Positions 28,090-47,623 of a DNA stretch of 64,000 nt are shown piece after piece. Made by a program: the position numbers and the translations under genes. Within the stretch, counting starts at the first letter, position 1, and the number at the start of each line of letters is the position of its first letter. Source of the stretch: Chitinophagales bacterium. Its GTDB lineage: Bacteria > Bacteroidota > Bacteroidia > Chitinophagales > UBA8649. The notes below the pieces were generated by a model. That model had not been told where the DNA came from, made no database searches, and saw only the letters and a program-made list of their open reading frames with translations. Location of the stretch: positions 178,674 through 242,673 of the forward strand of contig JASJJC010000009.1 of NCBI GenBank assembly GCA_037624485.1. Direction: 5' to 3'.

Positions 28090-29436
28090 ATGACAACTAA
28101 AACTCAAAAAATAGCAATACTCGGGGCTGCAGAAAGCGGTGTTGGTGCAGCTATACTTGCTACTCAGCAGGGTTTTGATGTTTGGGTATCAGATTATAGT
28201 CAAATCCAGCCAAAGCACAAAGAATGTTTAAATAAGTATAAGATCAATTGGGAAGAAGGTAAGCATAGCGAAGAGAATATACTGGATGCACATCTGGTAA
28301 TGAAAAGTCCTGGAATACCAGAAAACGCAGATATTATTCAAAAGATTAGAAAGAAAGGAATAGCAGTGGTCTCTGAGATAGAGTTTGCTTCAAGGTACAC
28401 CGATGCGTTTATAATAGCCATAACTGGCAGCAATGGTAAAACTACAGCAACAAGCTTAACCTATAAAATTTTAAAAGATGCTGGACTAAATGTCGGTGTA
28501 GCTGGGAATATAGGCGTGAGTTTTGCCCAGCAAGTCGCCACCCAGAAATTTGATTACTACGTTTTAGAAGTGAGCAGTTTTCAATTAGATGACATTGATT
28601 CATTTAAACCAAATATTTCCGTATTGCTAAACATAACACCAGACCACTTAGATCGCTATGACTATAAATTTGAAAACTACTTAGCGGCTAAGTTTAAGAT
28701 TACTCAGAATCAAAACGACGAGAATCTTTTCATTTATTGTCAGGACGATAAGTCAATAGCAACCTCACTAATTACAAAAAAAATTCATGCACAATCAATC
28801 CCTTTCACGCTTGAAACTGAAGTAGGTGAGGGCGCATATCTACAAAATAACGAATTAACTATAAACCTAAAAAAAAAAGTTTTTACTATGTCAATTAACG
28901 AAATAGGAATTAAAGGCAAGCATAATGTTTACAACTCAATGGCTGCTTCTATCGTGGCCAGAGCAGTAGATATTAAGAAGGAGAGTATCCGTGAAAGTCT
29001 AGCGGATTTTAAAAATCTAGAGCATCGAATGGAGAAGGTGCTGAAAATAGGCGGAGTTGAGTTTATCAATGATTCGAAAGCCACTAATGTAAACTCCACC
29101 TGGTACGCTCTAGAGTCTATCCAAAATCCAGTAGTTTGGATTGCGGGAGGGGTAGACAAGGGAAATGATTATGAGGTGCTTAAATCTTTAGTGCGCGCCA
29201 AAGTTCATACCGTTATTTGCTTAGGTAATGATAGTAGAAATTTGCACGAAGCTTTTTCTCATCAAACGGATTTGATGATAAATGTGCATGATATGAAAGA
29301 GGCCGTTAGAATCGCCAATCATTTTGCCAATAAAGGGGATGCAGTACTATTATCACCAGCTTGCGCAAGTTTTGATTTGTTTGAAAATTATGAGGATAGA
29401 GGAAATCAATTTAAAGCATCAGTGCGCAATTTATAA
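28090..29436 (+). CDS. murD: UDP-N-acetylmuramoylalanine--D-glutamate ligase
   Basis: About 448 aa. ITGSNGKTT P-loop. The ATG at 28090 is preferred over the TTG at 28087 used by the ORF track. Confidence 0.9.
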   Translation: MTTKTQKIAILGAAESGVGAAILATQQGFDVWVSDYSQIQPKHKECLNKYKINWEEGKHSEENILDAHLVMKSPGIPENADIIQKIRKKGIAVVSEIEFASRYTDAFIIAITGSNGKTTATSLTYKILKDAGLNVGVAGNIGVSFAQQVATQKFDYYVLEVSSFQLDDIDSFKPNISVLLNITPDHLDRYDYKFENYLAAKFKITQNQNDENLFIYCQDDKSIATSLITKKIHAQSIPFTLETEVGEGAYLQNNELTINLKKKVFTMSINEIGIKGKHNVYNSMAASIVARAVDIKKESIRESLADFKNLEHRMEKVLKIGGVEFINDSKATNVNSTWYALESIQNPVVWIAGGVDKGNDYEVLKSLVRAKVHTVICLGNDSRNLHEAFSHQTDLMINVHDMKEAVRIANHFANKGDAVLLSPACASFDLFENYEDRGNQFKASVRNL

Positions 29437-29457
29437 AAGCTAGAAATCTAGAAAGAA

Positions 29458-30666
29458 ATGTTTGAAAAAATAACCAAAAACATAAAAGGAGATAAATACA
29501 TATGGGTCATTGTGCTCATCTTGTCTTTGTTTTCTCTTTTGGCTGTTTACAGTTCTACCGGGACCTTAGCCTATAAATATAGAGCTGGCAATACGGAGTA
29601 TTATTTGATGAAGCAAGTTCTTATTATCGGTGGTGGTCTGGTTTTAATGTACCTGACTCATTTAATTAATTACAAATATTTCTCAAGAATCTCTCAAATA
29701 TTATATTACTTAAGTATTATCCTTTTGGTGCTAACCTTATTTTTTGGCACTGACATAAATGAAGCGAAAAGATGGATTACCCTTCCTGGGGTAAACCTTA
29801 CTTTTCAAACATCTGATTTAGCTAAATTTGCATTAATCATGTATTTAGCCCGCATGCTATCAAAGAAGCAAGACATGGTGCGTTCTTTTAGCGAGGGATT
29901 TTGGCCTACGATATTCCCGGTATTTATTATTTGTGGATTAATAGCTCCTGAAGATTTGTCATCTGCCTTGGTGTTATTCTCAACCAGTGTATTGGTAATG
30001 TTTGTGGGAAGAATTCACATAGCTTACATTGTTGGTTTAATTGGTCTTTCAGTAATTACGATAGGCATGTTTGTTACCTTGCTTTTCACTTTGCCAGAAG
30101 AGAGTATGCCGGGAAGAATGACAACTTGGAAAGCAAGAATAGAATCTTTTATGAATACGGATGGAGAAGAGCCGTATCAACTTGTTCAATCCAAAATTGC
30201 TATAGCTAAGGGTGGGTTTATTCCGAATGGCCCTGGTAATAGTACGCAACGCAATTTCCTTCCTCATCCTTATTCGGATTTTATTTATGCAATTATTATA
30301 GAAGAGTATAGCTTCTTTGGAGGAGTGTTTGTTGTTTTTCTTTACCTCGCATTCTTAATACGTTCAGGACTTATAGTTAGAAAAGCACCAAAAGCATTCG
30401 GTGCATTGTTATCCTTTGGATTGGCCTTAAGCCTAACTATTCAAGCAATGATTAATATGGGGGTTGCCGTCGGTTTATTGCCAGTCACGGGATTGACCTT
30501 GCCTTTGGTGAGTATGGGAGGGAGCTCTACCATCTTTGTAAGTCTTGCTTTTGGAATAATCCTCAGTGTAAGTCGAGATATTGAACAATTAGAACTAGGT
30601 ATAGATGAAAGTGAAATGTCGCTAGAAGATTTAATTATGGGTTCAGAGGAAATTGAACAGGAATAA
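29458..30666 (+). CDS. ftsW: SEDS-family peptidoglycan polymerase / lipid II flippase FtsW
   Basis: 402 aa polytopic protein. LPHPYSDFIYAII and GLLPVTGLTLPLVSMGGSS are SEDS hallmarks. Confidence 0.85.
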   Translation: MFEKITKNIKGDKYIWVIVLILSLFSLLAVYSSTGTLAYKYRAGNTEYYLMKQVLIIGGGLVLMYLTHLINYKYFSRISQILYYLSIILLVLTLFFGTDINEAKRWITLPGVNLTFQTSDLAKFALIMYLARMLSKKQDMVRSFSEGFWPTIFPVFIICGLIAPEDLSSALVLFSTSVLVMFVGRIHIAYIVGLIGLSVITIGMFVTLLFTLPEESMPGRMTTWKARIESFMNTDGEEPYQLVQSKIAIAKGGFIPNGPGNSTQRNFLPHPYSDFIYAIIIEEYSFFGGVFVVFLYLAFLIRSGLIVRKAPKAFGALLSFGLALSLTIQAMINMGVAVGLLPVTGLTLPLVSMGGSSTIFVSLAFGIILSVSRDIEQLELGIDESEMSLEDLIMGSEEIEQE

Positions 30667-30684
30667 ATAGACGCTAAAAAGAAA

Positions 30685-31770
30685 GTGAAGAAGAATTTAA
30701 AAATATTGATGAGTGGCGGAGGAAGTGGTGGACACGTTTTTCCAGCAATTGCTATAGCAGATGCTATTAAAAAAATATCCCCTGAGACAGAGTTTTTGTT
30801 TATTGGGGCAAAAGGTAAAATTGAAATGACTGCAGTGCCTAAAGCGGGATACGAAATAAAAGGGCTGACAATTGCGGGATTTCAGCGAAAACTAAGCGTA
30901 AAAAATTTACTTTTTCCATTTAAGCTGCTAGTGAGTCTGGTAAAGGCATGGGTTATCGTAAAAAATTTTAAACCAAATGCGGCAATTGGCACAGGTGGAT
31001 ATGCAAGCGGAGCAGCTTTGAAGGTAGCGCAATGGCAGGGGGTTGCAAGTTTTATTCAAGAACAAAATGCATTTCCCGGAATAACAAACAAACTATTGGC
31101 TAAGAAGGCAAGAAAAGTATTTGCTGCCTATAATGGTCTGGAACAATATTTTGAAAAATCAAAGATACAACTTACAGGAAATCCTTTGAGAGGTAGTATA
31201 TCACTGGATGGGGTAGATCGAAAATTGGCCTGCGAGCATTTCGGTTTGGATGGAAAAAAACCAATAGTATTTATCACTGGAGGAAGCCTAGGTGCTAGTG
31301 CTATAAATAAAGCTATTGCGGGAAAAATTAATCGTTTTGACGAAGAAGGAATTCAATTGATTTGGCAATGTGGTAGAATCTATGAAGCGGAGTATGCTAG
31401 TTTAAACTCACCCATGGTTAAGGTTCTAAGCTTTATTGACCGAATGGATTATGCCTACACGGCTGCAGATGTAATAGTCTCTCGAGCAGGTGGAACCATA
31501 TCAGAGCTAGCAATAATTGGAAAACCAACCATATTACTACCATCTCCAAATGTTGCTGAAGACCACCAAACCAAAAATGTAATGGCTTTAGTGGAAAAGG
31601 AGGCAGCAATTTTAATAAGGGATAATGAGGCCGTTGAAGCACTTGTTCCGGCATGTATCGACTTGCTAAGTAACACTGAATTGAAAGAAAAAATAAGTAA
31701 TAACATTAAGCAATTTGCTAAACCAAACGCAGCTAAGGAGATTGCTCAAAGTATTTTGTCAAGCATTTAA
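30685..31770 (+). CDS. murG: UDP-N-acetylglucosamine--N-acetylmuramyl-(pentapeptide) pyrophosphoryl-undecaprenol GlcNAc transferase
   Basis: 361 aa, GTG start. G-loop GGGSGGHVFPAIAIA and C-terminal HQTKN. Confidence 0.9.
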   Translation: MKKNLKILMSGGGSGGHVFPAIAIADAIKKISPETEFLFIGAKGKIEMTAVPKAGYEIKGLTIAGFQRKLSVKNLLFPFKLLVSLVKAWVIVKNFKPNAAIGTGGYASGAALKVAQWQGVASFIQEQNAFPGITNKLLAKKARKVFAAYNGLEQYFEKSKIQLTGNPLRGSISLDGVDRKLACEHFGLDGKKPIVFITGGSLGASAINKAIAGKINRFDEEGIQLIWQCGRIYEAEYASLNSPMVKVLSFIDRMDYAYTAADVIVSRAGGTISELAIIGKPTILLPSPNVAEDHQTKNVMALVEKEAAILIRDNEAVEALVPACIDLLSNTELKEKISNNIKQFAKPNAAKEIAQSILSSI

Positions 31771-33128
31771 TGAAAGACTTAAAAGACATATCAAAAGTAT
31801 ATTTTCTGGGTATTGGAGGTATCGGTATGTCTGCACTTGCGCGATATTTTAATGAGCAAGGCCTCAGCGTGAAAGGCTATGATAAAACATCATCTCCACT
31901 AACAGACAAGTTAATGCAAGAGGGAATGGATATCCATTTTGATGATGATTTAACGCTATTGGATAAAGAAGCTGATTTAGTCATATATACGCCGGCAATA
32001 CCTCAATCGCACAAGCAATTGAATTGGTATAAGGAAAATGGATACGAACTCTACAAACGGTCAGTAGTTTTAGGCATGATTTCAAGCAATCATTATTGTA
32101 TCGCTATTGCTGGTTCTCATGGGAAGACAACTGTTTCGTCTATGCTTGCTCATATATTAAATGGTGCAGGAGGATGCATAGCTTTTTTAGGAGGAATTGC
32201 CAGTAATTATAACTCCAATTATATCCATACATCTAATCGTTTTATGGTTGTTGAAGCAGATGAGTTTGATCGGTCTTTTCTTACTCTACATCCCAATATA
32301 GCGGGGATAACTGCAATTGATAGTGACCATTTGGAAGTGTATGGTAGTTTAGAAAATATTGAAGAAGAATTTATTCAATTTGCAAAACAAATAGTACCGC
32401 AAGGTCAGTTGATTTTAAATGAGCACTATTCGCATATTTTATCAAGATTACCCAAACACTTGGAGGTGTCACAATATGGCCATGAAAAGCAGGCGGATTA
32501 TTCGCTGACTAATTACAGTGTTGAGAACGGGGAGTTTGTTTTTACTGTAACGACACCAAACGGTGTTATTGAAAATCTTACCGCCAGCTTTGGAGGGATT
32601 CATAATTTAGAAAATGCCACTTTGGCGATTTCAATTTGTGAAAAATTAGGTATCTCTAATCGGGATATCCGAAAAGGAATACGCTCTTTTAAAGGAATTA
32701 AAAGAAGATTTGAAAAGCACGTAGATATCGATGGCACAATCTATATAGATGATTATGCACACCATCCTATGGAGATAAAAGCGCTGGTAAAATCACTTCG
32801 GTTTTTATACCCTGATAAAGAAATATTAGCAATTTTTCAACCCCATTTATTCTCAAGAACCAAGAATTTATATGAAGAATTTGCGCATGAGTTAGCTCAG
32901 GTGGATGATTTAATTCTCTTGCCAATATACCCTGCCAGAGAAGAGCCTATTGAAGGGGTAAGTTCAGAATTAATCTTGAATAAAGTAGCGCTTAAAAACA
33001 AGGCAATTATTGATAAGACATCGCTAATAGATTCACTTAGAAATAAAGTAAAGAACAAAGTGGTCGTCACCATCGGTGCAGGAGATATAGATAGATTTGT
33101 TGAGCCAATAAAAGAAATGCTTCAATGA
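31770..33128 (+). CDS. murC: UDP-N-acetylmuramate--L-alanine ligase
   Basis: 452 aa. GIGGIGMSALA and IAGSHGKTTVS. TAATG overlap with murG. Confidence 0.9.
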   Translation: MKDLKDISKVYFLGIGGIGMSALARYFNEQGLSVKGYDKTSSPLTDKLMQEGMDIHFDDDLTLLDKEADLVIYTPAIPQSHKQLNWYKENGYELYKRSVVLGMISSNHYCIAIAGSHGKTTVSSMLAHILNGAGGCIAFLGGIASNYNSNYIHTSNRFMVVEADEFDRSFLTLHPNIAGITAIDSDHLEVYGSLENIEEEFIQFAKQIVPQGQLILNEHYSHILSRLPKHLEVSQYGHEKQADYSLTNYSVENGEFVFTVTTPNGVIENLTASFGGIHNLENATLAISICEKLGISNRDIRKGIRSFKGIKRRFEKHVDIDGTIYIDDYAHHPMEIKALVKSLRFLYPDKEILAIFQPHLFSRTKNLYEEFAHELAQVDDLILLPIYPAREEPIEGVSSELILNKVALKNKAIIDKTSLIDSLRNKVKNKVVVTIGAGDIDRFVEPIKEMLQ

Positions 33129-33901
33129 AAAAGACGACAAAAAAATACATCATTCAAGGCTTGAAGGTTGCATTAATTGCGGTTTTTGGTGTGTTGTTTA
33201 TTGCCATTTTAATCAAGGCTCGTTTGCAGGCTGGTGAGTCTGTCTGTAATGAAATTCAGGTGAATGTTAAAAATGCAGATAAATTTCAATTTATTGCGGA
33301 AAATGAGATCATTGATTTTATAAACAACAATGGGAAAGATGTGGTGATTAATCAACGATTAAAGGATGTCTCTAAATCGGAAATTGAGGCACGCATTGAG
33401 CAAAGCGAATACATAGAAAAAGCTGATGTTTTCACTAATTTTGAAGGGAAGATGCGCGTAGATGTGACACAAAAAAACCCTATATATAGAGTATTCAACA
33501 ATAATGGTGTTAGTTACTATGTGAGTAACAAGGGTGAAAGTATTCCTATTTCAAGTAAATTTACTCCTAGACTAATTGTTGCTACTGGGAATTTGTCGAA
33601 GCAGCTTACATCAAAGAATCTTAAGATCCGTGAAGACCTACTTGAACTTGTGGCCTTCATCAATGAAAGTTCATTTTGGGAAGCTATGATAGGGCAAATT
33701 GAGGTAGCAAATAATGGTGATTTTTTACTTTATTCTAAGATCGATGAACATGTTGTAAACATTGGAAATACTGATAATCTTGAGGATAAATTTAAGTATC
33801 TCCAGATATTTTACAAAGAAGCAATAAAGAATGTTGATTGGAAACAATATGAAGAAATAAATCTAAAGTTTAAAGGACAAATAATCTGTAAAAAAAAATA
33901 A
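33125..33901 (+). CDS. ftsQ: Cell-division protein FtsQ-like
   Basis: 258 aa. Single N-terminal TM helix followed by a POTRA-like region. ATGA overlap with murC. Conserved position before ftsA. Confidence 0.65.
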   Translation: MKKTTKKYIIQGLKVALIAVFGVLFIAILIKARLQAGESVCNEIQVNVKNADKFQFIAENEIIDFINNNGKDVVINQRLKDVSKSEIEARIEQSEYIEKADVFTNFEGKMRVDVTQKNPIYRVFNNNGVSYYVSNKGESIPISSKFTPRLIVATGNLSKQLTSKNLKIREDLLELVAFINESSFWEAMIGQIEVANNGDFLLYSKIDEHVVNIGNTDNLEDKFKYLQIFYKEAIKNVDWKQYEEINLKFKGQIICKKK

Positions 33902-33910
33902 CGTAAACGA

Positions 33911-35263
33911 ATGGATGCAAATAATCAAGTAATCGTAGGACTAGATATAGGGACAACCAAGATTTGTGTTTTAGTCACAAAGAAGGATGAGTTGGGTAAA
34001 ACTGAGGTTTTGGGTATTGGAAAAGCACCATCTCATGGAGTTATGCGCGGGGAGGTTGCCAATATCGACAAAACTGTACAATCTATTATACAGGCCGTAA
34101 AAGATGCTGAAAAACAATCTGGTGAAACAATCACCAAGGTTCATGTAGGTATTGCAGGTCAGCACATTAAGAGTATGCAGCACAGAGGTATTCTTACTCG
34201 AAGTGATGCGCAAAGTGAGATTTCCGAAGAGGATATTAAAAGTTTAATTCGCGATATGCATAAGCTTGCAATGAGTCCAGGTGAACGAATAATTCATGTC
34301 TTGCCGCAAGAGTTTATTGTAGATTCAATGCCTGCCAAAAGTGATCCAATTGGGATGTGTGGTAGTCGTCTCGAAGCAAATTTCCATATTATCACAGGAC
34401 GAGTAGCCGCTGCACAAAATATTGAGCGTTGTGTTCAAAAGGCTGGCTTAACCATGGAAGGATTGATATTGGAGCCACTGGCATCGGCCGCTTCAGTTTT
34501 GGATGAGGATGAAAAAGAAGCTGGGGTAGCTTTAGTAGATATTGGAGGAGGCACGACAGATTTAGCCATTTTTCAAGATGGTATAATAAGGCATACATGT
34601 GTTATTCCTTTCGGCGGCAACATTATTACGGAAGATATTAAGGACGGTTGTAAGATTATGAAAAATCAAGCAGAAGCCTTAAAGGTTCGGTTCGGTTCGG
34701 CAGTTTCGGTAGAAGCGAAGGACAATCAAATCATTTCTATACCGGGATTAAAGGGGCGTCCACCCAAGGAAATTTCTATGAAAAACTTGGCAAATATTAT
34801 CCAAGCTAGAATAGAAGAGATCTTCGAACAAGTTTATTTTGAGATAAAAGCTTCTGGATATGCAAAAAAATTGAACGGAGGAATTGTTATAACAGGTGGT
34901 GGATCACAATTGAAATTCATAAAACAATTAGTAGAATATGTCACCGGGCTTGATGCACGGATAGGTTATCCAATAGAGCACTTGGCAACTGATTATAATG
35001 CCGAGCTGAAACACCCAATGTTCGCCACTGGAATAGGCTTAGTAGAGAGAGCCTTTAAGGAAGATAGTAAATCTTCAGACAAAGTTCATATTGACCCCTA
35101 TGATTCAACTATAGAGAGGAAGCAGGAGGAAGTAGAATCAGAAGCTGGTAATAACCTTATCGAAACCGCTCAAACAAATAAAGTTAAGGACTGGTGGAAG
35201 GATATTTTCAAAGGAATACCAGAATGGTTGATGGATGAGAATGACGGAGATTTTAATGATTAA
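33911..35263 (+). CDS. ftsA: Cell-division protein FtsA
   Basis: 450 aa, actin-fold motifs (VGLDIGTTKICV, DIGGGTTDLAIF, ITGGGSQL). Confidence 0.9.
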   Translation: MDANNQVIVGLDIGTTKICVLVTKKDELGKTEVLGIGKAPSHGVMRGEVANIDKTVQSIIQAVKDAEKQSGETITKVHVGIAGQHIKSMQHRGILTRSDAQSEISEEDIKSLIRDMHKLAMSPGERIIHVLPQEFIVDSMPAKSDPIGMCGSRLEANFHIITGRVAAAQNIERCVQKAGLTMEGLILEPLASAASVLDEDEKEAGVALVDIGGGTTDLAIFQDGIIRHTCVIPFGGNIITEDIKDGCKIMKNQAEALKVRFGSAVSVEAKDNQIISIPGLKGRPPKEISMKNLANIIQARIEEIFEQVYFEIKASGYAKKLNGGIVITGGGSQLKFIKQLVEYVTGLDARIGYPIEHLATDYNAELKHPMFATGIGLVERAFKEDSKSSDKVHIDPYDSTIERKQEEVESEAGNNLIETAQTNKVKDWWKDIFKGIPEWLMDENDGDFND

Positions 35264-35293
35264 GATTACAAAAAAGAAAAAATTAAACTAGCT

Positions 35294-36850
35294 ATGAATT
35301 TGCAATTTGACTTACCAAAAGAACAATCATCAATCATTAAAGTGATTGGAGTAGGTGGTGGGGGCAGTAATGCTGTTAATCACATGTATGAAATGGGTAT
35401 TAGAGGAGTTAATTATGTGGTGTGCAACACAGATCAACAAGCTCTTGACCTAAGTCCCGTTCCCAATAAAATCCAATTAGGTCCAGAAATGACCCAAGGT
35501 TTAGGGGCTGGATCTAGACCCGAAATAGGAGAAGAAGCTACGATTGAATCTTCGCAGGACATCCAAGAATTACTGAGTAAGAATACGAGAATGGTGTTTG
35601 TCACTGCCGGAATGGGCGGAGGAACAGGGACTGGTGGAGCTCCTGTAGTAGCCAAACTTGCCCGAGAGATGGGAATATTGACAGTTGGTATTGTCACCAC
35701 TCCATTTAGCTTTGAAGGCCGTCGGAAGTTGATGCAGGCAGATGAAGGGATTAAGAAATTAAAGGATGAAGTAGATAGTATTTTGGTTATCTCCAACGAT
35801 AAGATTCGAGAGATTTACGGAAATTTGTCAAAATCTGAGGCATTTTCAAGAGCAGATGATGTATTGACCATGGCTGCAAAATCAATTTCAGAAATTATTA
35901 CAGTCCCCGGTGAAATTAATGTTGATTTTGCCGATGTTCAGTATGTAATGAAAGAAAGTGGAGTGGCAATAATGGGTGTTGCAGAAGCGGAAGGAGAAGA
36001 TAGAGCCATGCGTGCTGTTCATGCGGCAATAAATTCACCTTTACTTAATAGCAACAATATAACAGGTGCGAGAAAAATATTAATCAATATTAGCTCGGGT
36101 AATGAACAAGTAACTATTGATGAAATTACTGAAATCAATGATTTTGTGCAAGATGCAGCAGGCAATGATACAGATATCATATTTGGTACTTGTGACGATG
36201 ATGCTTTAGGTGAAAAGTTAAGTGTTACAATTATTGCTACTGGGTTCAGTGATGATAATACTGAACCTGTGCAAGTAAAGAAAGAAGTGATTAGTTTGGA
36301 TAATCTTGCAAGAGAAGAGGCTCCGATCAAGCCCGCAGAAGATGTTATGCAGATAAGAGAAGAAACATCAGATAATCCACATACAGGAAATAAAGTAAGT
36401 GATTCTTACACCTTTGATTTGTTCGACGGTCGCAAGGATGAAGAACCAGTTGAACCTACTCAAGTGAATCTGAATAATAATTTTGAGGAGAACTCATTCG
36501 ATTTTGAGATCAAAGAAGTTGACTCTACTCTGCCTGACACTGAATCTTATGGTTTCTATACAACACCAAAAGAAACACCAAGGGAAGATTTGCCCGTCAA
36601 TAAGGAGGAAATCCTTAATGATCGTGTCCGCAGATTAAAAGATGTGAGTTATAAATGGGACAATATGAATAAGATCAAGGAATTCGAGGAAACACCAGCC
36701 TATACCAGACGAGGGATATGTTTGGATGAAACTCCTCATAGTAGTGAAAATAATGTCTCTAGATTTTCGGTAGATAGTTTTGATGTTGAAGGAGAAAAAC
36801 GACCAGAAATTCGAAAGAATAATGGTTTTCTTAATGATAATGTAGATTGA
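35294..36850 (+). CDS. ftsZ: Cell-division GTPase FtsZ with long disordered C-terminal linker
   Basis: 518 aa. GVGGGGSNAVN and tubulin signature GGGTGTGGAPVVA. Confidence 0.95.
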   Translation: MNLQFDLPKEQSSIIKVIGVGGGGSNAVNHMYEMGIRGVNYVVCNTDQQALDLSPVPNKIQLGPEMTQGLGAGSRPEIGEEATIESSQDIQELLSKNTRMVFVTAGMGGGTGTGGAPVVAKLAREMGILTVGIVTTPFSFEGRRKLMQADEGIKKLKDEVDSILVISNDKIREIYGNLSKSEAFSRADDVLTMAAKSISEIITVPGEINVDFADVQYVMKESGVAIMGVAEAEGEDRAMRAVHAAINSPLLNSNNITGARKILINISSGNEQVTIDEITEINDFVQDAAGNDTDIIFGTCDDDALGEKLSVTIIATGFSDDNTEPVQVKKEVISLDNLAREEAPIKPAEDVMQIREETSDNPHTGNKVSDSYTFDLFDGRKDEEPVEPTQVNLNNNFEENSFDFEIKEVDSTLPDTESYGFYTTPKETPREDLPVNKEEILNDRVRRLKDVSYKWDNMNKIKEFEETPAYTRRGICLDETPHSSENNVSRFSVDSFDVEGEKRPEIRKNNGFLNDNVD

Positions 36851-36876: not shown

Positions 36877-36910
36877 AGGCCTACTAAGAATTCTTAGTAG
36901 GCCTTTTTTT
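36877..36910 (+). terminator. Rho-independent terminator ending the dcw operon
   Basis: Perfect 14-bp palindromic stem AGGCCTACTAAGAA/TTCTTAGTAGGCCT, immediately followed by TTTTTT. Confidence 0.85.
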
Positions 36911-37031
36911 GTGGCAAAAACCAGCGTTCAGAACACTAAGTTAGTCCCTCGGTAAATTGCGCTTTTGTGCAGTTTGATTTTTTATATAATCAGTAGCAAA
37001 GGGCTGTGGTAAACAAAATAGCAACAATTTG

Positions 37032-37066
37032 TGGATTTATTCCATCTTTATTTGGATTTATTCCAT
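37032..37066 (+). promoter_or_regulatory. Duplicated 14-bp dyad element (TGGATTTATTCCAT x2), candidate operator of the downstream S24 repressor
   Basis: Exact copies at 37032-37045 and 37053-37066, offset by 21 bp. Each contains the inverted repeat TGGA-N5-TCCA. The second copy ends 22 nt before the ATG. Confidence 0.5.
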
Positions 37067-37087
37067 TAAACGTTTAACTTCGAATGG

Positions 37088-37849
37088 ATGAAAAATAAAT
37101 TACCAATTGAAGCAGAACGGTTTAAGGTTTTAAGAAATTATTTAGGCTTTACACAAGCTAAATTTGCTCAAGACTTAGGTATTAAATCTTCTACCGTTGA
37201 TATTGAGAGAGGCAAGATGCGAATACCTGCTCACGCATTGATTTTCTTGATTAAAAAATATAATATTGATCCACTTTGGCTTTATGGTGAAAGCGAGCAG
37301 ATGCATAGTAAGGTGAGAAAACTAGAGGTTCTACCAAAAGTAATTTTAGTAGATAGTGATGAGAATGAGAATGTCTTAATGGTTAACGCTAAAGCTGCGG
37401 CGGGTTACCCGTCAAACCTATCCAATCATCAATGGTATAGTTCTTTACCCGCTTTTCATATTCCATTACCCAGTTTTAAGGGAGTGAGTATTCGAGCTTT
37501 TCAAGTGGAGGGACATAGCATGCTGCCTATCTTAAAGCCTAACGATTGGGTGTTTGGTAAAGCAATCCTTCATTTAGAAAGCATCAAAGAGGGAGATGTT
37601 TATGTCGTGGTCAGCCACGATTCAGTTTTAGTTAAACGGGTTTATCATAAAGATGCTCAAAATATCATACTAATTTCGGAGAATTCCCAATACCCTGATA
37701 TCATAATGAATAAAACCAAAGTGCAGGAAATGTGGAATTTTGCCAGTAAAATGAGTTTTGACCTAGAACAAAAAGAAGGTCGTTTGACTGCGATAAATGA
37801 TAAAATTGATATCCTCTTAAAAGAGATTAAGAGAGACGAACCGAATTAA
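37088..37849 (+). CDS. XRE/CI-type HTH + S24 peptidase self-cleaving repressor (LexA-like)
   Basis: 253 aa. HTH (LGFTQAKFAQDLGIKSSTVDIERGK), Ala-Gly cleavage-site-like AKAAAGYP, catalytic Ser context GHSMLP, catalytic Lys context VLVKRV. Confidence 0.75.
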   Translation: MKNKLPIEAERFKVLRNYLGFTQAKFAQDLGIKSSTVDIERGKMRIPAHALIFLIKKYNIDPLWLYGESEQMHSKVRKLEVLPKVILVDSDENENVLMVNAKAAAGYPSNLSNHQWYSSLPAFHIPLPSFKGVSIRAFQVEGHSMLPILKPNDWVFGKAILHLESIKEGDVYVVVSHDSVLVKRVYHKDAQNIILISENSQYPDIIMNKTKVQEMWNFASKMSFDLEQKEGRLTAINDKIDILLKEIKRDEPN

Positions 37850-37989
37850 TTTTTTGAGAGCTTGCAAGATTTTAGAAAAGTCGGTTCACACAATAAATCC
37901 AACTTCAAATGCCATTTCTATCTAAGTAAGGGGAAATCTTATGTTTTTAAGGCGCATTCGTCTATTTCTATATCAACAGTTTCGGGCAT

Positions 37990-39276
37990 CTACTTCGCCA
38001 TCAATTCCTCTATCTCTTCAACTGTAATTGGAATGTTGGCCATTAAGTCAAAGTTCTTTCCGTCTTTAACGATAATGTCATTTTCAATACGAACTCCTAT
38101 TCCTTCATCCCGTATGTATATTCCAGGCTCAATGGTGAAGCACATGTTTTCCTCAATTTTCTCATAACGAGCACCTACATCATGCACGTCAATACCCATG
38201 AAGTGACTTGTCCCATGCGGGAAATATTTTTGAGTGAGCTGCTTCCTTTCTTCTTCACTTGCTTGCTTGTCAATTAATTTAATATCCACTAAGGCTGAGG
38301 CCATCATTTTTTTGACCGCTGCATTGAAGTCATTCAGCGTCATTCCAGGACTCATAATGTTCTTTGCTTCATCATGAATGCCTAGACAGGCGTTATATAC
38401 TTCTTTTTGACGATCCGTGAACTTTCCATTTACAGGAATAGTCCGGGAAAGGTCAGAGGCATAACAAGCATATTCCGAACCAAAATCCATAAGTAATAAA
38501 TCTCCATCATTACATACCACGTCATTTTCAATGTAATGCAAGACACATGCATTAGCACCTGAAGCAATAATCGGGGTATATGCATGTCCTGTTGCACCAT
38601 GCCTCATAAAGGTGGAAATGATTTCTGCTTCTACTTCATATTCCATCATTCCTGGTTGGGTAGTTGAGAGCACCCTTCTAAATGCTTGCTCAGTTATGTC
38701 ACAAGCTTTTTGCATTGTCGCCACTTCTTCGGCTTGTTTGATGCTTCGTTGGTATGAAACAATCGGTGCACTGCGCTTGAATTGATGAAGAGGGAACTGA
38801 TCTCTCATTGCTTTGGCAAAACGCTTGTCCTTTGTTTCTACCTTTGAATGGGCTCTGTCATTTTCATTTAAATTAAGATAAAAGGTTTTGACCATATTAC
38901 TTAAATGGCTTACCGTGCTATCAAAAGCAGTATTCCATTTGATGGTTTCAATATTGGATATCTGTTTACCTTGCTTTTTATTTACCTTATCACCTTCCCA
39001 TACCGCGATCATTTCATTTGTTTCGCGCAAAAACAAGATTTCACGTTGTTCCTCATTTGATGCATCAGGGTAAAGAATAAGCATGCACTCCTCTTGGTCA
39101 ATTCCAGTTAGGTAGTAAAAGTCAGGGTTTTGTCGAAATGGGTGGTGTCCATCAGCACTTCTCGGCATGACATCATTAGAATGAAAGATAGCCATGGAGT
39201 TTTTCTCCATTTGTTTCATAAAGGTCTTTCGATTACCGCTAAAAAAACTAGCTGGCATGCGTTCATATCTACTCAT
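37990..39276 (-). CDS. pepP: Xaa-Pro aminopeptidase (M24B family)
   Basis: 428 aa. Metal-ligand blocks DFGSEYACYASDLSRT, HGTSHFMGIDVHD, EPGIY, RIENDI. Confidence 0.85.
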   Translation of the reverse strand: MSRYERMPASFFSGNRKTFMKQMEKNSMAIFHSNDVMPRSADGHHPFRQNPDFYYLTGIDQEECMLILYPDASNEEQREILFLRETNEMIAVWEGDKVNKKQGKQISNIETIKWNTAFDSTVSHLSNMVKTFYLNLNENDRAHSKVETKDKRFAKAMRDQFPLHQFKRSAPIVSYQRSIKQAEEVATMQKACDITEQAFRRVLSTTQPGMMEYEVEAEIISTFMRHGATGHAYTPIIASGANACVLHYIENDVVCNDGDLLLMDFGSEYACYASDLSRTIPVNGKFTDRQKEVYNACLGIHDEAKNIMSPGMTLNDFNAAVKKMMASALVDIKLIDKQASEEERKQLTQKYFPHGTSHFMGIDVHDVGARYEKIEENMCFTIEPGIYIRDEGIGVRIENDIIVKDGKNFDLMANIPITVEEIEELMAK

Positions 39277-39600: not shown

Positions 39601-39975
39601 ATGCCTACAATTCAACAATTAGTAAGAAAAGGAAGGAAAGCGATTATAAGCAAAAGTAAATCTAGAGCTTTAGACGCCTGCCCTCAGAAGAGAGGAGTAT
39701 GTACAAGAGTATATACCACTACACCTAAAAAACCTAACTCTGCTTTGAGAAAAGTGGCGAAGGTGAGATTGACCAACGGAATAGAGGTTATTGCCTATAT
39801 ACCGGGTGAAGGTCACAACTTACAAGAGCACTCTATCGTATTGATTAGAGGAGGAAGGGTAAAGGATTTACCAGGGGTGCGTTACCACATCGTTAGAGGT
39901 GCTTTAGATACATCTGGTGTTGAAGGTAGACTGCAGTCAAGATCTAAATACGGAGCTAAGCGCCCGAAAAAATAA
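39601..39975 (+). CDS. rpsL: 30S ribosomal protein uS12
   Basis: 124 aa. [12 protein letters not shown]...[10 protein letters not shown]. Confidence 0.97.
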
Positions 39976-39981
39976 GATAGT

Positions 39982-40449
39982 ATGAGAAAAAGAAAACCGC
40001 AGAAAAGGTATTATCAACCAGATCCAAGATTTGGTGATGAGAATGTAACTTTCTTTGTTAACAATTTAATGTTAGACGGAAAGAAAACGATTGCGTACAA
40101 AATATTTTATGATGCAATGGACTATGCTACGGAAAAAGCTGGGGAAGATGGTTATGAGCTATGGAAAAAAGCTTTAGTAGCAATATCTCCTGGAGTTGAA
40201 GTAAAAAGTAGAAGAATCGGTGGTGCCACTTTTCAAATCCCTTCAGAGGTTCGTCCAGCAAGAAAGCGTTCCGTAGGAATGAAGTGGCTAATAAAATACT
40301 CTCGTGCTCGTAACGGGAAGTCAATGGCTGAAAAGCTGGGTAGTGAAATTATGGCAGCAGCCAAAGGTGAAGGAGCTGCAGTCAAAAAAAGAGAAGATAC
40401 GCAAAGAATGGCGGAAGCAAATAAAGCGTTCTCTCACTTTAAATTTTAA
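39982..40449 (+). CDS. rpsG: 30S ribosomal protein uS7
   Basis: 155 aa. DPRFGD...NNLMLDGKK. Follows rpsL. Confidence 0.95.
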   Translation: MRKRKPQKRYYQPDPRFGDENVTFFVNNLMLDGKKTIAYKIFYDAMDYATEKAGEDGYELWKKALVAISPGVEVKSRRIGGATFQIPSEVRPARKRSVGMKWLIKYSRARNGKSMAEKLGSEIMAAAKGEGAAVKKREDTQRMAEANKAFSHFKF

Positions 40450-40458
40450 TAAACAGTC

Positions 40459-42564
40459 ATGGCTAGAGATTTAAACTACACAAGAAATATCGGAATCGCA
40501 GCGCATATTGATGCAGGTAAAACTACAACAACAGAGCGTATTTTGTACTACACTGGTGTGACTCACAAGATAGGTGAGGTGCATGATGGTGCTGCTACAA
40601 TGGATCACATGGCACAAGAGCAAGAAAGAGGTATTACAATTACTTCTGCTGCCACTACGGTTCACTGGGATTACAGAGGTAAAGAATATCACGTTAATAT
40701 TATTGATACTCCAGGTCACGTGGATTTCACTGTTGAAGTGAATCGGTCATTAAGAGTATTAGATGGTTTAGTGTTTTTGTTTTCAGCGGTTGATGGTGTT
40801 GAGCCACAGTCTGAAACAAATTGGCGTTTAGCTGACAACTATAATGTGCCAAGAATTGGATTCGTTAATAAAATGGATCGTCAAGGTGCTGATTTCTTAA
40901 ACGTGTGCGCTCAGGTTAAGAAAATGTTAGGTAGCCACGCTTTACCACTACAAATTCCTATCGGTGCTGAAGATGATTTCAAAGGTGCTGTTGATCTAAT
41001 CAACTTTAAAGGAGTCGTATGGAATGAAGATGATATGGGTATGACCTTTAATGAAGTGCCTATACCAGATGACATCTTAGAAGAAGCTACCATGTACAGA
41101 GAGCAATTGCTTGAAGCTGTAGCTGAATTCAACGATACCTTAATGGAGAAATACTTCGAAGATCCTGATTCATTAACTGAAAGAGAAATTTTAGATGCTC
41201 TAAGAGAAGCTACTATTGCTGGAAAAGTTATTCCAATGATGTGTGGCTCTGCATTTAAAAATAAAGGTGTTCAGGCTATGTTGGATATGGTCATGGAAAT
41301 TTTACCGTCACCTTTAGATGTAGAAGGAATCATAGGAACAAATCCTGATACGGATGAGCAAGAGGTTAGAAAGCCAAATGTTGACGAGCCCTTTGCTGCC
41401 TTAGCATTTAAAATAGCTACGGATCCTTTTGTAGGTCGTTTGTGTTTCACAAGAGCTTATTCAGGAAAGTTAGATTCTGGCTCTTATGTTTTAAACACAA
41501 GAACGGGAAAGAAAGAGCGTATTTCACGTGTATTTGAAATGCATGCGAACACTCAGAAACAAGTTCCTTTTTTACAAGCAGGAGATATCGCAGCCTTAGT
41601 TGGTTTTAAAGATATTAGAACTGGAGATACATTATGCGCAGAGAAGCATCCTATTGTCTTGGAGTCTATGGACTTTCCAGATCCAGTTATTGGACTAGCA
41701 ATTGAGCCAAAAACTCAAAGTGATGTAGATAAGTTAGGTATGGCTTTAGCAAAATTGTCTGAAGAGGATCCAACTTTTAAAGTTGCATTTGATGAGAATA
41801 CAAGTCAAACTGTCATTAGTGGAATGGGTGAGTTACACCTTGACATTATCTTGGATCGTTTGAGAAGAGAATTTAAAGTAGAGTGTAATCAGGGAGCTCC
41901 ACAAGTAAACTATAAAGAGCAAATATCTCAAACAGTTGAGCATAGAGAGACCTTCAAGAAACAATCGGGTGGTAGAGGTAAATTTGCTGATATCAAGTTC
42001 GAAATGGGACCTGTCGAAGACCCTACCAAACAAGGATTAGAATTTGTAAATGATATTTTTGGTGGATCTATTCCAAGAGAATTTATTCCTGCAATCGAGA
42101 AAGGTTTTAAAGAAGCTATGAAGAATGGTGTTCTTGCTGGTTACGAAGTTGATAGCTTAAAAGTAAGAATTTATGATGGTTCATTTCACCAAGTGGATTC
42201 TGATGCTTTATCTTTTGAATTGTGTGCAAAAATTGGATTTAAAGAAGCTTCGAAAAAAGCGAAGCCTATTATTCTTGAACCAATCATGAAACTAGAAGTT
42301 ATTACTCCAGAAGAAAATACAGGGGATGTAGTTGGTGATTTGAATAGAAGACGAGGTATCATGGAAGGTATGGCTATGAAAGGAACTGGTCAAGTAATTA
42401 AAGCAAAAGTTCCATTATCTGAAATGTTTGGATATGTCACACAGCTAAGAACGATTACTTCAGGTAGAGCAACGTCATCTATGGAATTCCATAGTTACCA
42501 ACCTGCTCCAGATGGTATAGCAAAAACTGTAATTGAAAAAGCAACGGGTAAAGTAACCGCTTAA
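40459..42564 (+). CDS. fusA: Elongation factor G
   Basis: 701 aa. G1 [10 protein letters not shown]3 [12 protein letters not shown]. Confidence 0.97.
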
Positions 42565-42575
42565 TATTAAAGAAA

Positions 42576-42881
42576 ATGACACAGAGAATTAGAATTAAGT
42601 TGAAATCATACGATTATAATTTAGTTGACAAGTCAGCTGAAAAAATCTATAAAACAGTAAAGAATACAGGAGCTATTATTAGTGGACCAATTCCTTTACC
42701 AACGAAAAGAAAAGTCTTTAATATCTTGCGTTCACCTCACGTGAACTCAGATTCAAAGGAACAGTTTCAATTAATGACGTATAAAAGATTATTAGACATC
42801 TACAGCTCTAACTCAAAAACAATTGATGCTTTAATGAAGCTTGAATTGCCGAGTGGAGTCGATGTAGAAATTAAAGTTTAA
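42576..42881 (+). CDS. rpsJ: 30S ribosomal protein uS10
   Basis: 101 aa. IRIKLKSYD...GPIPLPTK. Confidence 0.95.
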
Positions 42882-42959
42882 GCGGGAAACCAATGTCCTT
42901 TCCCTAATTAGGGAAAGAATAAGTTCCATCTGAAACAAATTTTTAAAACAAAAAGACAG

Positions 42960-43580
42960 ATGAAAGCAATTTTAGGAAAAAAGATTGGAATGACTAGCGT
43001 CTTCACTGAAGAGGGATCCAAAATGCCGTGTACGGTATTAAGTATCGGACCTTGCTACGTTACTCAAATCAAAACGGAAGAAACTGACGGATACAATGCC
43101 GTGCAGTTAGCTTACGGAGAAAAGAAAGATAAGAACACGCCAAACCCTATGAAGGGTCACTTCAAAAAAGCAGGAGTGGATTCCAAACACAAGTTATTTG
43201 AAGTTAGAGATTTTGACTTTGAAAAAAATCTTGGGGATGAAATCACTATCGACATCTTTGAAGAAGGTGAAGAAATTGCTGTGGTTGGTACTTCAAAAGG
43301 TAAAGGTTTCCAAGGTGTTGTAAAACGTCACGGATTTAGGGGTGTTGGAATGCAAACCCACGGTCAGCACAATAGAGGTAGAGCGCCAGGATCAATTGGT
43401 ATGGCATCTACGCCTTCAAGAGTACTGAAAGGTCAGCGTATGGCCGGAAGAATGGGTACTGATAGAGTCAAAGTTAAAGGCCTGAAAATTATTAAATTAA
43501 TAGCAGAAGAAAACTTAATGGTTGTAAAAGGAAGTGTTCCTGGCCATAAGGGATCTTACATAATTGTGGAGGGTAAATAA
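42960..43580 (+). CDS. rplC: 50S ribosomal protein uL3
   Basis: 206 aa. ILGKKIGMT...[13 protein letters not shown]. Confidence 0.95.
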
Positions 43581-43581
43581 A

Positions 43582-44196
43582 ATGAAAGTGAAAGTTTTAA
43601 ATACAGCCGGTAAGGAAACTGGAAGAGAGGTAACATTACCAAAAGAAGTTTTCGGTATTGAACCAAATGATCATGCTATTTACTTAGACGTTAAGCAATA
43701 TTTAGCTAACCAACGTCAAGGTACACACAAAGCAAAGGAAAGATCAGAAGTTAAAGGATCTACAAAAAAGATTAGAAAACAAAAAGGTTCAGGTGGAGCG
43801 CGTTTTGGCGATATCAAGAATCCGCTTTTTAGAGGTGGTGGTCGTGTATTCGGTCCTCGTCCTAGAAATTATTCGTTCAAATTGAATAAAAAAGTGAAAG
43901 TATTAGCAAGGCTTTCAGCACTTACATACAGAGCAAAAGAAAATGCTATTGTTGTTGTGGAAGACTTCAAAATGGATGCACCTAAAACCAGTGTCTTCAT
44001 TTCTTTTTTAGGGAATATTGGAGCAGATAAGAAGGGATTATACGTTAACCAAGATGCAGATAGTAATGTCTTGCTTTCTTCTAGAAACTTTCAAGGAGCT
44101 AGAATCACTGAGGTTAACAATTTAAACACTTATGATATTTTAAATTGCCAGAAACTAGTTATCAGTGAAAGCAGCCTAGAATATTTTAATAAATAA
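43582..44196 (+). CDS. rplD: 50S ribosomal protein uL4
   Basis: The ATG at 43582 (MKVKVLN) lies just after the rplC stop. The ORF-track start at 43564 is a TTG inside rpl[10 protein letters not shown] motif. Confidence 0.93.
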
Positions 44197-44204
44197 TTGA
44201 AGCC

Positions 44205-44507
44205 ATGAGAGTAATAGAAGACGTATTAAAAAAGCCTGTTGTGACTGAAAAGTCTAACGAAATGCAAGAAAAGAGTAATCGATTTACTTTTATTGTAGAT
44301 AGAGACGCAAACAAATTAGTCATCAAGAAGGCTATTGAAACGATGTACGGAGTAAGTGTAGATAAAGTATGGACACACGTTATCCCAGCGAAAGCAAAAA
44401 CTCGTTTTACAAAGTCAGGCGTGGCATCAGGAAGAAAACCAGCTTATAAAAAAGCAATTGTGAGTCTTGTGGAAGGCGATACAATTGATTTCTATAGTAA
44501 TATCTAA
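44205..44507 (+). CDS. rplW: 50S ribosomal protein uL23
   Basis: 100 aa, conserved S10-operon position. KPVVTEKS. Confidence 0.92.
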   Translation: MRVIEDVLKKPVVTEKSNEMQEKSNRFTFIVDRDANKLVIKKAIETMYGVSVDKVWTHVIPAKAKTRFTKSGVASGRKPAYKKAIVSLVEGDTIDFYSNI

Positions 44508-44537
44508 TAGGAATAAGAATCCACAAATTAAGAAAAG

Positions 44538-45362
44538 ATGGGAATTAGAAAATTTAAGCCAGTAACACCTGGCACACGTTTTAGAATCGGAAGTGACTTC
44601 GCAGAGGTGACAACTGATAAGCCAGAGAAGTCTCTACTTTTACCTTTAAGTAAAAAAGGTGGTAGAAACTCGAATGGTAGAATCACCACTCGTTATAGAG
44701 GTGGTGGATCAAAAAGAAAATATCGTATTATCGACTTTAAAAGAGATAAGCAAGATATGCCAGCAGAAGTGTTGTCTATTCAGTACGATCCAAACAGAAC
44801 AGCTCGTATTGCATTATTGCAATATGAAGATGGAGTTAAAAGCTACATAATTGCCCCAAACGGTTTAAGTGTTGGTGCAAAGTTAATGTCTGGATCCAAA
44901 GCAGATCCTGAAGTAGGAAATGCATTGTACTTAGCAGATATTCCCTTAGGTTCTGTGGTACACAACATTGAAATGCAGCCAGGTAGAGGTGCTCAAATTG
45001 CTAGAAGTGCTGGTGCCTATGCGCAACTAACAGCACGTGAAGGAAAATATGCAATTTTAAAAATGCCTTCAGGTGAAACAAGAATGATACTTAAAACTTG
45101 TTTAGCGGTTATTGGTTCTGTTTCAAACGGAGACCATAACTTAACTAGGTTAGGTAAAGCAGGAAGAAAAAGATGGTTAGGTATTAGACCACGTACTAGA
45201 GGAGTAGTAATGAATCCGGTAGATCACCCAATGGGTGGTGGTGAAGGCCGTAACTCAGGAGGTCACCCTCGATCTAGAACAGGCGTTTACGCTAAAGGGT
45301 TTAAAACTAGAGACAAAAAGAAATCATCTAATCGTTTAATCATAAGCAAACGTAAAAAATAA
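44538..45362 (+). CDS. rplB: 50S ribosomal protein uL2
   Basis: 274 aa. [14 protein letters not shown]...HPMGGGEGR. Confidence 0.97.
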
Positions 45363-45365
45363 GAT

Positions 45366-45635
45366 ATGGCACGTTCAATAAAAAAAGGCCCTTATATCGC
45401 ACATCACTTACTTAAAAAAGTAGATGTCATGAATGAGGCTGATAGAAAAGCAGTAATTAAAACTTGGTCAAGAGCAAGTATGATTATTCCAGATATGGTA
45501 GGCCATACGATTGCAGTTCATAACGGAAACAAATTTATTCCTGTTTATGTTACGGAAAATATGGTAGGACACAAGTTAGGTGAATTCTCTCCAACTCGTT
45601 CATTTAGAGGACATTCATCGAAGAAAATTAAATAA
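45366..45635 (+). CDS. rpsS: 30S ribosomal protein uS19
   Basis: 89 aa. [10 protein letters not shown]...[23 protein letters not shown]. Confidence 0.97.
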
Positions 45636-45690
45636 GATATAGTTTATCCGATTGAAAAATCGCTTAACTAAAAATCTAAATATTAAAAAA

Positions 45691-46068
45691 ATGGAAGCAG
45701 TAGCAAAATTGAAAAATAATCCTACATCAACGAGAAAAACTCGATTGGTAGCGGATTTGATTAGAGGAATGGAAGTAAATCAAGCACTAAACGTACTGAA
45801 GTTTACAAGCAAGGAATCAGCTCCGAAAATTGAAAAACTGTTATTATCTGCTGTTAATAACTGGGGTCAAAAAAATGAGGCTCAACCGGAGGATCACGAT
45901 TTAATCGTTAAGTCTATTTGGGTTGATGGTGGAAAAATGCTCAAGCGTTTTAGACCAGCGCCTCAAGGTAGAGCGCACAGAATTCGTAAGCGTTCCAACC
46001 ATATAACCTTAGTGGTTGATTCAAAAGTGGCAACCCCTGTTAAAGAGGAAGCGCCAGCAGCCGAATAA
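45691..46068 (+). CDS. rplV: 50S ribosomal protein uL22
   Basis: The ATG at 45691 (MEAVAKLKN) is preferred over the TTG at 45652. Conserved position after rpsS. Confidence 0.92.
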
Positions 46069-46087
46069 AGTATGATTTAAGATAAAA

Positions 46088-46120
46088 GGGATGCCTCCTG
46101 TTGACGGAGGCATTTTTTTT
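46088..46120 (+). terminator. Rho-independent terminator inside the S10 operon (after rplV)
   Basis: Stem ATGCCTCC(46091-98)/GGAGGCAT(46106-13), 7-nt loop, followed by a T7-8 run. An A-run upstream could allow bidirectional function. Confidence 0.75.
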
Positions 46121-46212
46121 GAATGAAAATAAGTATCCACAACAATTGAAAAAGTGTATAAAAAAAATACAAAAAAAATGAATCAAGGGTTTAAATAACC
46201 AATTTTAATCCT

Positions 46213-46220
46213 TACATTTG
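46213..46220 (+). promoter_or_regulatory. Candidate internal -7 promoter box (TACATTTG) upstream of rpsC
   Basis: Exact TAnnTTTG, 43 nt upstream of the rpsC ATG (46263), downstream of the intra-operon terminator. Confidence 0.45.
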
Positions 46221-46262
46221 CACTCCAATTTTATAGAAGCGTTTCAAAATAGAACGAAATTA

Positions 46263-47618: not shown

Positions 47619-47623
47619 GATCG

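Follow-up and report, generated by a model that had tools for sequence, protein, structure and literature searches.

The S24 repressors of the Bacteroidetes that carry a lambda-CI-like helix-turn-helix (HTH) are specific to this phylum and were described as 'non-canonical LexA' by Sanchez-Osuna et al. (2021; NAR 49:11050, PMC8565304). The family falls into two clusters, one of the GGA-N5-TCC type, the other of the CTAA-N5-TTAG type. The first was found 'primarily in the Flavobacteriaceae', and binding of GGA-N5-TCC by the Salegentibacter agarivorans protein WP_075324850.1 was established by EMSA and site-directed mutagenesis; the reference for the second is WP_025606010.1 of Pontibacter actiniarum, and the published EMSA and RT-qPCR data cover S. 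agarivorans and P. actiniarum only. An extra helix at the C-terminus is a described feature of the family, and several of the regulated promoters hold at least two instances of the motif. The motif-bearing SOS genes include dinB/dnaE2, SRAP, splB, umuDC, recA and others, with the dinB-like, SRAP and dnaE2-like genes making up the core of the GGA-N5-TCC regulon. A phage origin has been proposed for the family, and contracted regulons have been reported in some of its clades (PMC8565304).

Here we analysed a gene of this kind in a 64-kb stretch of DNA (called the window below, at its full length) from an uncultured marine bacterium of the Chitinophagales. We conclude that the product of the gene is very probably a non-canonical LexA of Bacteroidota from the GGA-N5-TCC cluster, a dimeric repressor that is predicted to repress its own synthesis and to be relieved by RecA. 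The positions of its features are collected in Table 1.

Table 1. Features of the repressor gene and its upstream region, in window coordinates
Feature	Position	Strand	Remarks
Intrinsic terminator of ftsZ	36878..36910	+	15-bp perfect stem, loop AAUU, U7 tail; RNA fold
Distal candidate operator TGGATTTATTCCAT, GGA-N5-TCC dyad	37032..37045	.	G of GGA at -55 from ATG
Predicted -33 element TTTG	37051..37054	+	Read from sequence; 20 nt upstream of -7 box
Proximal candidate operator TGGATTTATTCCAT, GGA-N5-TCC dyad	37053..37066	.	G of GGA at -34 from ATG
Predicted sigma-A -7 box TAACTTCG	37075..37082	+	Bacteroidota consensus TAnnTTTG
Gene for probable non-canonical LexA, GGA-N5-TCC cluster	37088..37849	+	253 aa, ATG start
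XRE/CI-type multi-helical HTH DNA-binding domain, residues ~7-66	37106..37285	+	HTH_19/HTH_3, model helices
Peptidase_S24 domain, residues 102-211	37391..37720	+	Pfam E 8e-14
Codons Ala105-Gly106, predicted scissile bond	37400..37405	+	Invariant in alignment
Predicted catalytic Ser144 codon	37517-37519	+	Invariant
Predicted catalytic Lys183 codon	37634-37636	+	Invariant
Terminal alpha-helix, residues 232-249, past S24 fold	37781..37834	+	AlphaFold, pLDDT ~55-58

Protein domains and family membership

The exact protein has already been deposited as NCBI MEJ6694671.1, 'MAG: LexA family transcriptional regulator [Chitinophagales bacterium]'; JGI names it 'SOS-response transcriptional repressor LexA', and it recurs across Tara Oceans and other marine assemblies. 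Pfam assigned residues 102-211 to Peptidase_S24 (PF00717) with 51.7 bits against a cut-off of 23.3. The HTH matches, which span residues 10-66, were to HTH_19 (E 3e-6, 27.4 bits against 30.2), sub-threshold yet significant, and to HTH_3 (E 5e-4), also under its gathering score; LexA_DNA_bind gave no match in the 253-residue protein. The AlphaFold model, of moderate confidence overall (mean pLDDT 68.6), consists of a confidently predicted helical N-terminal domain at residues 7-65 (helices 7-19, 23-29, 37-40, 48-58 and 62-65; pLDDT 80-91), a disordered linker at 76-98, a beta-rich C-terminal domain at 135-222 and, after the end of the last beta-strand at residue 222, the helix at 232-249, which has low confidence. 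The best Foldseek matches in the PDB were the C-terminal domains of LexA and of the lambda CI repressor; a sequence search of the PDB gave a single weak HTH match, 8tac, and NCBIfam gave weak matches to LexA, UmuD and signal peptidase models in the C-terminal part only.

When the protein was aligned with 13 homologues, the putative recognition-helix motif S-T-x-D-I-E-R-G was nearly invariant, and all four residues of the predicted self-cleavage machinery were invariant, namely Ala105-Gly106 in AKAAAGYP, Ser144 in GHSM and Lys183 in VKRV. In the published alignment Ala105-Gly106 lines up with the Ala-Gly of LexA and lambda CI (PMC8565304). An earlier reading of this DNA, made from the sequence only, had recognized a 253-residue ORF with an XRE/CI-like HTH and an S24 domain, and within it the Ala-Gly site and the Ser/Lys dyad; the ORF and all of these elements were borne out by the Pfam matches and by the invariance of the residues in 13 of 13 homologues. 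That reading had also described a helical C-terminal extension of about 45 residues: the length was roughly correct, with ~42 residues beyond the S24 match, and the helical part was overstated, being ~18 residues. The C-terminal region aligns by BLASTP with the same segment of the published family sequences, as far as residues 247-249.

The C-terminal domain was compared by BLASTP with C-terminal-domain sequences taken from Supplementary Data S5 of PMC8565304, six from the GGA cluster and six from the CTAA cluster. Its identity to the six GGA-cluster proteins was 40-46% (E 1e-36 to 1e-50, 116-153 bits), and over the C-terminal 160 residues it was 45% identical (E 5e-46) to the EMSA-validated WP_075324850.1; with the six CTAA-cluster proteins the identity was 25-36% (40-91 bits). 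The C-terminal domain of lambda CI matched at E 0.009, and that of E. coli LexA gave no BLASTP match at E <= 10. Judged by these BLASTP scores, the protein appears to group with the GGA-type and not with the CTAA-type regulators. Canonical LexA was rejected as its identity: the TIGR00498 model scored 22.5 bits against a cut-off of 110.95 and covered residues 126-212 only, and there was no winged-helix match. The profile searches and the comparison with the published family, both suggested with the sequence-only reading, thus put S24 above its cut-off, HTH below it, and the GGA cluster nearest. That reading had assigned the protein to the CI-like S24 non-canonical LexA reported by the Erill and Barbe groups, an assignment supported by the identity to the GGA cluster, by the upstream motif and by the sites found in homologues.

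Candidate operators

The 14-mer TGGATTTATTCCAT occurs exactly twice upstream of the gene, the copies being 21 bp apart with 21 nt between the proximal copy and the ATG, and no further copy is present in the 64-kb window. The dyad in it, GGA-TTTAT-TCC, is an instance of the published GGA-N5-TCC motif (PMC8565304), the motif which the sequence-only reading had been unable to recall. In its extended form, TGGA-N5-TCCA, the dyad is found five times in the 64 kb where 0.95 would be expected (~5-fold; 0 of 100 shuffles reached five), and the three copies outside the promoter sit within long coding ORFs. We also scanned the window with a position matrix made from 244 GGA-N5-TCC sites in the promoters of homologues, none of them from the window itself. 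The matrix ranked positions 37052-66 first (20.8 bits) and 37031-45 second (14.4 bits) in the 64 kb; the next matches in the window scored ~10 bits and were all intragenic, so that no credible GGA-N5-TCC site was detected in the 64-kb window beyond the gene's own promoter. Chance repetition was ruled out by the occurrence of the 14-mer only twice, by the enrichment of the dyad, and by the matrix, which independently ranked both sites at the top.

A recent 21-bp tandem duplication was not supported as the origin of the pair: the 7-bp stretches that follow the two copies (CTTTATT and TAAACGT) are unlike, the stretches before them are also unlike, and the copies are not identical in a strain whose protein is 97% identical. 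In this homologue, L087, the sites read ATGGATTAATTCCAT and TAGGATTTATTCCAT and are again 21 bp apart, with the GGA/TCC cores alone conserved; they differ from those of the window by one flanking T and one spacer base. Changes of this kind match the tolerance seen in the published mutagenesis (PMC8565304), and the exactness of the duplication is therefore incidental. The 'exactly duplicated dyad' of the sequence-only reading accordingly holds for this stretch, which has the exact 14-mer twice, but not as a general trait, since it is strain-specific.

GTDB species representatives were scanned for homologous loci, giving 80 loci with homologues 42-48% identical, mostly from Flavobacteriaceae such as Flagellimonas, Arenibacter, Maribacter and Muriicola, with several from Dyadobacter. 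Within 250 nt upstream of the gene, 77 of the 80 loci had one to five GGA-N5-TCC sites, usually three or four in tandem; the density of the motif was 12.8 per kb upstream versus 0.31 per kb in the remainder of these loci. Neighbouring sites were mostly 18 or 23 bp apart in these loci and a spacing of 21 bp was rare, and CTAA-N5-TTAG occurred once among the 80. The match to the published motif and the presence of sites in 77 of 80 homologous loci support the proposal, already made from the sequence, that the dyads form an autoregulatory operator, and we treat both copies as candidate operator sites.

Promoter and proposed mechanism

The intrinsic terminator of ftsZ was missed by the terminator scan and its hairpin was folded separately; with a folding energy of -26.3 kcal/mol and z = -6.3, it was more stable than any of 200 shuffles, and it bounds the repressor's transcription unit on the upstream side. 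An Rfam scan of the window gave nothing at the gathering threshold. A sigma-70 promoter scan is irrelevant for Bacteroidota, and the promoter was read directly. The TTTG at the position given in Table 1 fits what we take to be the consensus and spacing of the Bacteroidota -33 element. Downstream of it, the box TAACTT[TC]G ends 5 nt before the ATG and keeps the same distance in all clade relatives. The flavobacterial sigma-A -7 box TAnnTTTG spans -12 to -5 (PMC9723704), and this placement together with the conserved box leads to a predicted transcription start at ~37087, from which the mRNA is predicted to be leaderless or to have a 1-nt leader. The proximal candidate operator overlaps the predicted -33 element, through its left arm, as well as the spacer; the distal candidate operator abuts the same element immediately upstream. 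The position of the proximal site over the predicted -33 element implies autorepression, and the overlap of the one site and the abutment of the other make promoter occlusion the most likely mechanism.

By analogy with the published system, we propose that in undamaged cells dimers of the repressor would occupy both GGA-N5-TCC sites, perhaps cooperatively. With the proximal site covering the -33 element and spacer of its own sigma-A promoter, one or two dimers would bring about self-repression by occlusion of that promoter. After DNA damage, RecA-ssDNA filaments would stimulate the predicted self-cleavage at Ala105-Gly106, carried out by Ser144 and Lys183; cleavage would part the DNA-binding domain from the dimerisation domain and so derepress the gene's own promoter, plus any other GGA-N5-TCC promoters. 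Binding and inducibility here are inferred from the family, as is the putative cleavage.

Locus context and alternative readings

The gene order at the locus is ftsA, ftsZ, repressor, pepP (an M24 Xaa-Pro aminopeptidase gene, convergent on the minus strand), rpsL, rpsG and fusA. All 11 of 11 independent assemblies of the window species have ftsA-ftsZ-repressor-pepP, with promoters that are identical or nearly so. Relatives at 72-83% protein identity, some of which keep pepP-rpsL-rpsG-fusA downstream, have, divergent from the repressor gene and upstream of it, an operon for a Y-family polymerase (IMS), in some cases 23S_rRNA_IVP, an SRAP peptidase and a DNA_pol3_alpha protein of ~1000 residues (dnaE2-like), and two GGA-N5-TCC sites lie in the ~100-nt intergenic region common to the repressor and this operon. 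When a relative's Y-family polymerase was used as query, seven of the eight contexts recovered adjoined their own S24 regulator, and the eighth was on a 1.8-kb contig, too short to tell; none of the eight could be placed in the MAG of the window. No homologue of IMS, SRAP or dnaE2 was detected by tblastn in the 64-kb window, and no recA, dinB, umuDC, dnaE2 or SRAP gene is present in the 64 kb. The window species lacks the ancestral divergent dinB-like/SRAP/dnaE2-like partner operon at this locus. The status of SOS-type master repressor, inferred in the sequence-only reading, found no support in the 64 kb, where the gene's own promoter is the sole SOS target.

Nucleotide homology to the relative L081 begins at 37052, that is, at the proximal candidate operator. 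All clade relatives examined share a GGA-N5-TCC site at exactly -34. Lineages that bear the cassette have their distal site at -76, near the dinB-like start codon, whereas the window species has it at -55, the pair having shifted from -34 and -76 to -34 and -55. The lineage L085 is likewise without a cassette, and decay has turned its distal site into GGG-N5-TCC.

These observations raise the possibility, which we consider real if somewhat unlikely, that the protein is an orphan or minimal regulator, one that has lost its main target cassette and controls itself or a very small regulon instead of acting as a global SOS master. In favour of it are the divergent adjacency of the cassette in every related lineage that has one, set against its absence from the 64-kb window, the constant position of ftsA-ftsZ upstream in all 11 assemblies of the species, the loss of the cassette and decay of the distal site in L085, and the contracted regulons reported in some clades (PMC8565304). 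Against it, neither the gene nor either operator is damaged and strains share the operator cores, which argues for continued function, and other parts of the genome may carry the cassette or further targets such as recA, uvr genes or splB. Such a restricted role refines the explanation given above, a GGA-type autorepressing LexA, and does not contradict it. How the present arrangement arose is a separate matter: we put forward with considerable doubt that the window species excised or relocated the error-prone polymerase cassette, which lies divergently from the repressor gene in most related lineages examined, leaving the repressor at the end of the dcw cluster, and that the -76 site gave way to a new one at -55 with the sequence of the proximal site. 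If the cassette is absent genome-wide, the species would offer a natural example in which an SOS repressor has outlived the core of its regulon; the repressor would then be an orphan that regulates itself, or it would have been rewired to new targets.

The CI/XRE-like N-terminal domain, the phage origin proposed for the family (PMC8565304) and the location of distant relatives (25-36% identity) at the termini of predicted viral contigs would all suit a CI repressor of a lysis-lysogeny switch carried by a prophage or other mobile element. We nevertheless find this highly improbable here: the gene is surrounded by ftsZ, pepP and genes for ribosomal proteins, with neither an integrase nor any phage gene among its neighbours, it holds the same position in 11 assemblies, and a search of 50,697 phage genomes returned no close homologue, the best match being 27.5% identical over 60% of the protein. 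The relatives at prophage ends have no GGA-N5-TCC sites; the lone viral-contig match at 43% identity does have GGA sites, and it lies in the host flank, among genes for an M16 peptidase, a P-type ATPase and a KDO transferase. The sequence-only reading had placed the gene between the ftsZ terminator and pepP with no phage genes nearby and did not regard it as an obvious prophage CI; the neighbouring genes and the hairpin fold confirmed the first point, and the stable chromosomal context and the phage genome search agreed with the second.

A checkpoint regulator linked to division, either co-transcribed with the dcw cluster or regulating it, has in its favour the adjacency to ftsZ, found in the window species only, and is scarcely tenable, as a strong terminator separates ftsZ from the repressor gene, no credible GGA-N5-TCC site lies upstream of any dcw gene (the next-best matches, at ~10 bits, are inside ORFs), and sister lineages do not conserve the adjacency. 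The suggestion, made from the sequence, that a position directly after ftsZ points to a link between SOS and division did not hold up: the position is a species-specific rearrangement, other lineages have the divergent cassette there, and the terminator is strong.

Significance

Earlier descriptions already cover the operator, the architecture and the extra helix, and existing annotation puts the protein in the LexA family. Mildly new are the taxon, the loss of the polymerase cassette at this locus and the altered pair of operators. As far as sequence comparison can tell, the GGA-N5-TCC non-canonical LexA, known mainly from the Flavobacteriaceae, would extend to an abundant group of uncultured marine Chitinophagales (Tara Oceans). 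The locus also offers a clean example of a candidate operator that overlaps a predicted Bacteroidota -33/-7 promoter. The cassette's loss at this locus is a minor evolutionary point that could help in asking how SOS regulons contract. Beyond annotation the importance is small, and no open question becomes newly testable.

Comparison with known systems

The closest described system is the GGA-type LexA of S. agarivorans, with which the window protein shares the CI-type HTH, the Ala-Gly linker, the S24 Ser/Lys pair and the extra terminal helix, as well as tandem GGA-N5-TCC sites in its own promoter. In the close relatives of the window gene the likeness to the published GGA regulon extends to the divergent dinB-dnaE2-type operon and the SRAP gene. 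The window gene departs from the GGA cluster in three respects: its host is an uncultured marine 'Chitinophagales' MAG and not a member of the Flavobacteriaceae, its two sites are 21 bp apart whereas the cluster usually has three to four sites spaced by 18 or 23 bp, and in the window species the locus has no polymerase cassette.

The CTAA-N5-TTAG cluster of P. actiniarum is a sister clade within the family and resembles the window protein in overall architecture and in the terminal helix; it differs in sequence, at 25-36% identity, and no CTAA-N5-TTAG site is found upstream of the window gene. With canonical LexA the protein has in common an S24 domain with Ala-Gly and Ser/Lys, LexA structures being its top fold matches, and a palindromic operator of fixed spacer, and predicted autoregulation and RecA*-dependent inactivation; in contrast to canonical LexA, it has an XRE/CI multi-helical HTH in place of the winged helix, the extra terminal helix and another operator. 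Finally, lambda CI, HdiR and the phage S24 repressors (COG2932) are alike in the type of HTH, in the S24 domain and in having tandem operators, whereas the window gene is not phage-borne, its dyad has a fixed 5-bp spacer, and the matches of its product to Phage_CI_repr (E 0.19) and to the lambda CI C-terminal domain (E 0.009) are marginal.

Gene content around the repressor locus

Related Chitinophagales lineages carry, divergently oriented to the repressor gene, an operon for a Y-family polymerase (IMS), an SRAP peptidase and a dnaE2-like DNA_pol3_alpha protein of approximately 1000 aa, to which a 23S_rRNA_IVP protein gene is sometimes added. In the window species this cassette was absent both from the repressor locus and from the rest of the 64 kb. 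It was also missing from the lineage represented by homologous locus L085, whose repressor is 72% identical; there, a glutathione peroxidase gene stands upstream of the repressor in place of the polymerase operon. The L085 distal site, GGGATATTTCC (region L085:5740-6000), differs by one mismatch from the GGA-N5-TCC motif, a variant consistent with decay once the divergent promoter was lost.

Among related genomes the repressor-polymerase pair occupied at least four distinct neighbourhoods (contexts L081, L088, L094 and L105), namely pepP-rpsL, Peptidase_M14, abhydrolase/TetR and purK. The Y-family polymerase of the pair shares about 70% identity with Flavobacteriaceae DinB, whereas the identity between the repressor and its Flavobacteriaceae counterparts is only about 45%. 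These varied neighbourhoods and unequal identities may be a sign of horizontal movement of the cassette within Bacteroidota.

In the L081 lineage, an inserted AbiH-family (abortive infection) gene separates the repressor gene from pepP (L081:6926-7903); the corresponding interval in the window is intergenic and merely 140 nt (37850-37989). The 101-aa ORF that begins within it had no Pfam match and is probably not a gene.

Coordinates of the divergent operon regions in homologous loci and of the ORF antisense to pepP
Feature	Location	Strand	Remark
IMS-SRAP-DNA_pol3_alpha operon region	L081:169-5899		divergent
IMS-SRAP-DNA_pol3_alpha operon region	L086:231-5899		divergent
IMS-SRAP-DNA_pol3_alpha operon region	L091:5001-10254		divergent
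IMS-SRAP-DNA_pol3_alpha operon region	L088/L089/L092:5001-9900		divergent
101-aa ORF, TTG start	window 37862-38167	+	antisense to pepP 3' end

Upstream sequences and the wider window

As a conserved -7 box ends 5 nt ahead of the repressor ATG (window 37075-37090), the repressor transcript is predicted to be leaderless; in Flavobacterium psychrophilum, leaderless mRNAs were reported to make up only about 5.5% of mRNAs (PMC9723704). Between the ftsZ terminator and the operators there is a second, weaker terminator-like hairpin with a T-run (36953-36985), and its sequence is kept only in part in the 97%-identical relative, L087. Judged by position and ORF sizes, window 21485-36850 seems to hold a full dcw cluster, starting at a small mraZ-like ORF and ending at ftsZ, followed by what look like ribosomal protein operons (39601-57515); within these regions Pfam was run on ftsA, ftsZ, rpsL, rpsG and fusA only. 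An Rfam scan of all 64 kb at the gathering threshold gave zero RNA families.

Possible relationship to viral repressors

HTH-S24 proteins with 25-36% identity were encoded on IMG/VR contigs (L107-L121), a few kb or less from the ends of these predicted viral contigs, and no GGA-N5-TCC sites were found upstream of their genes. This pattern agrees with the phage origin that has been proposed for the non-canonical LexA family.
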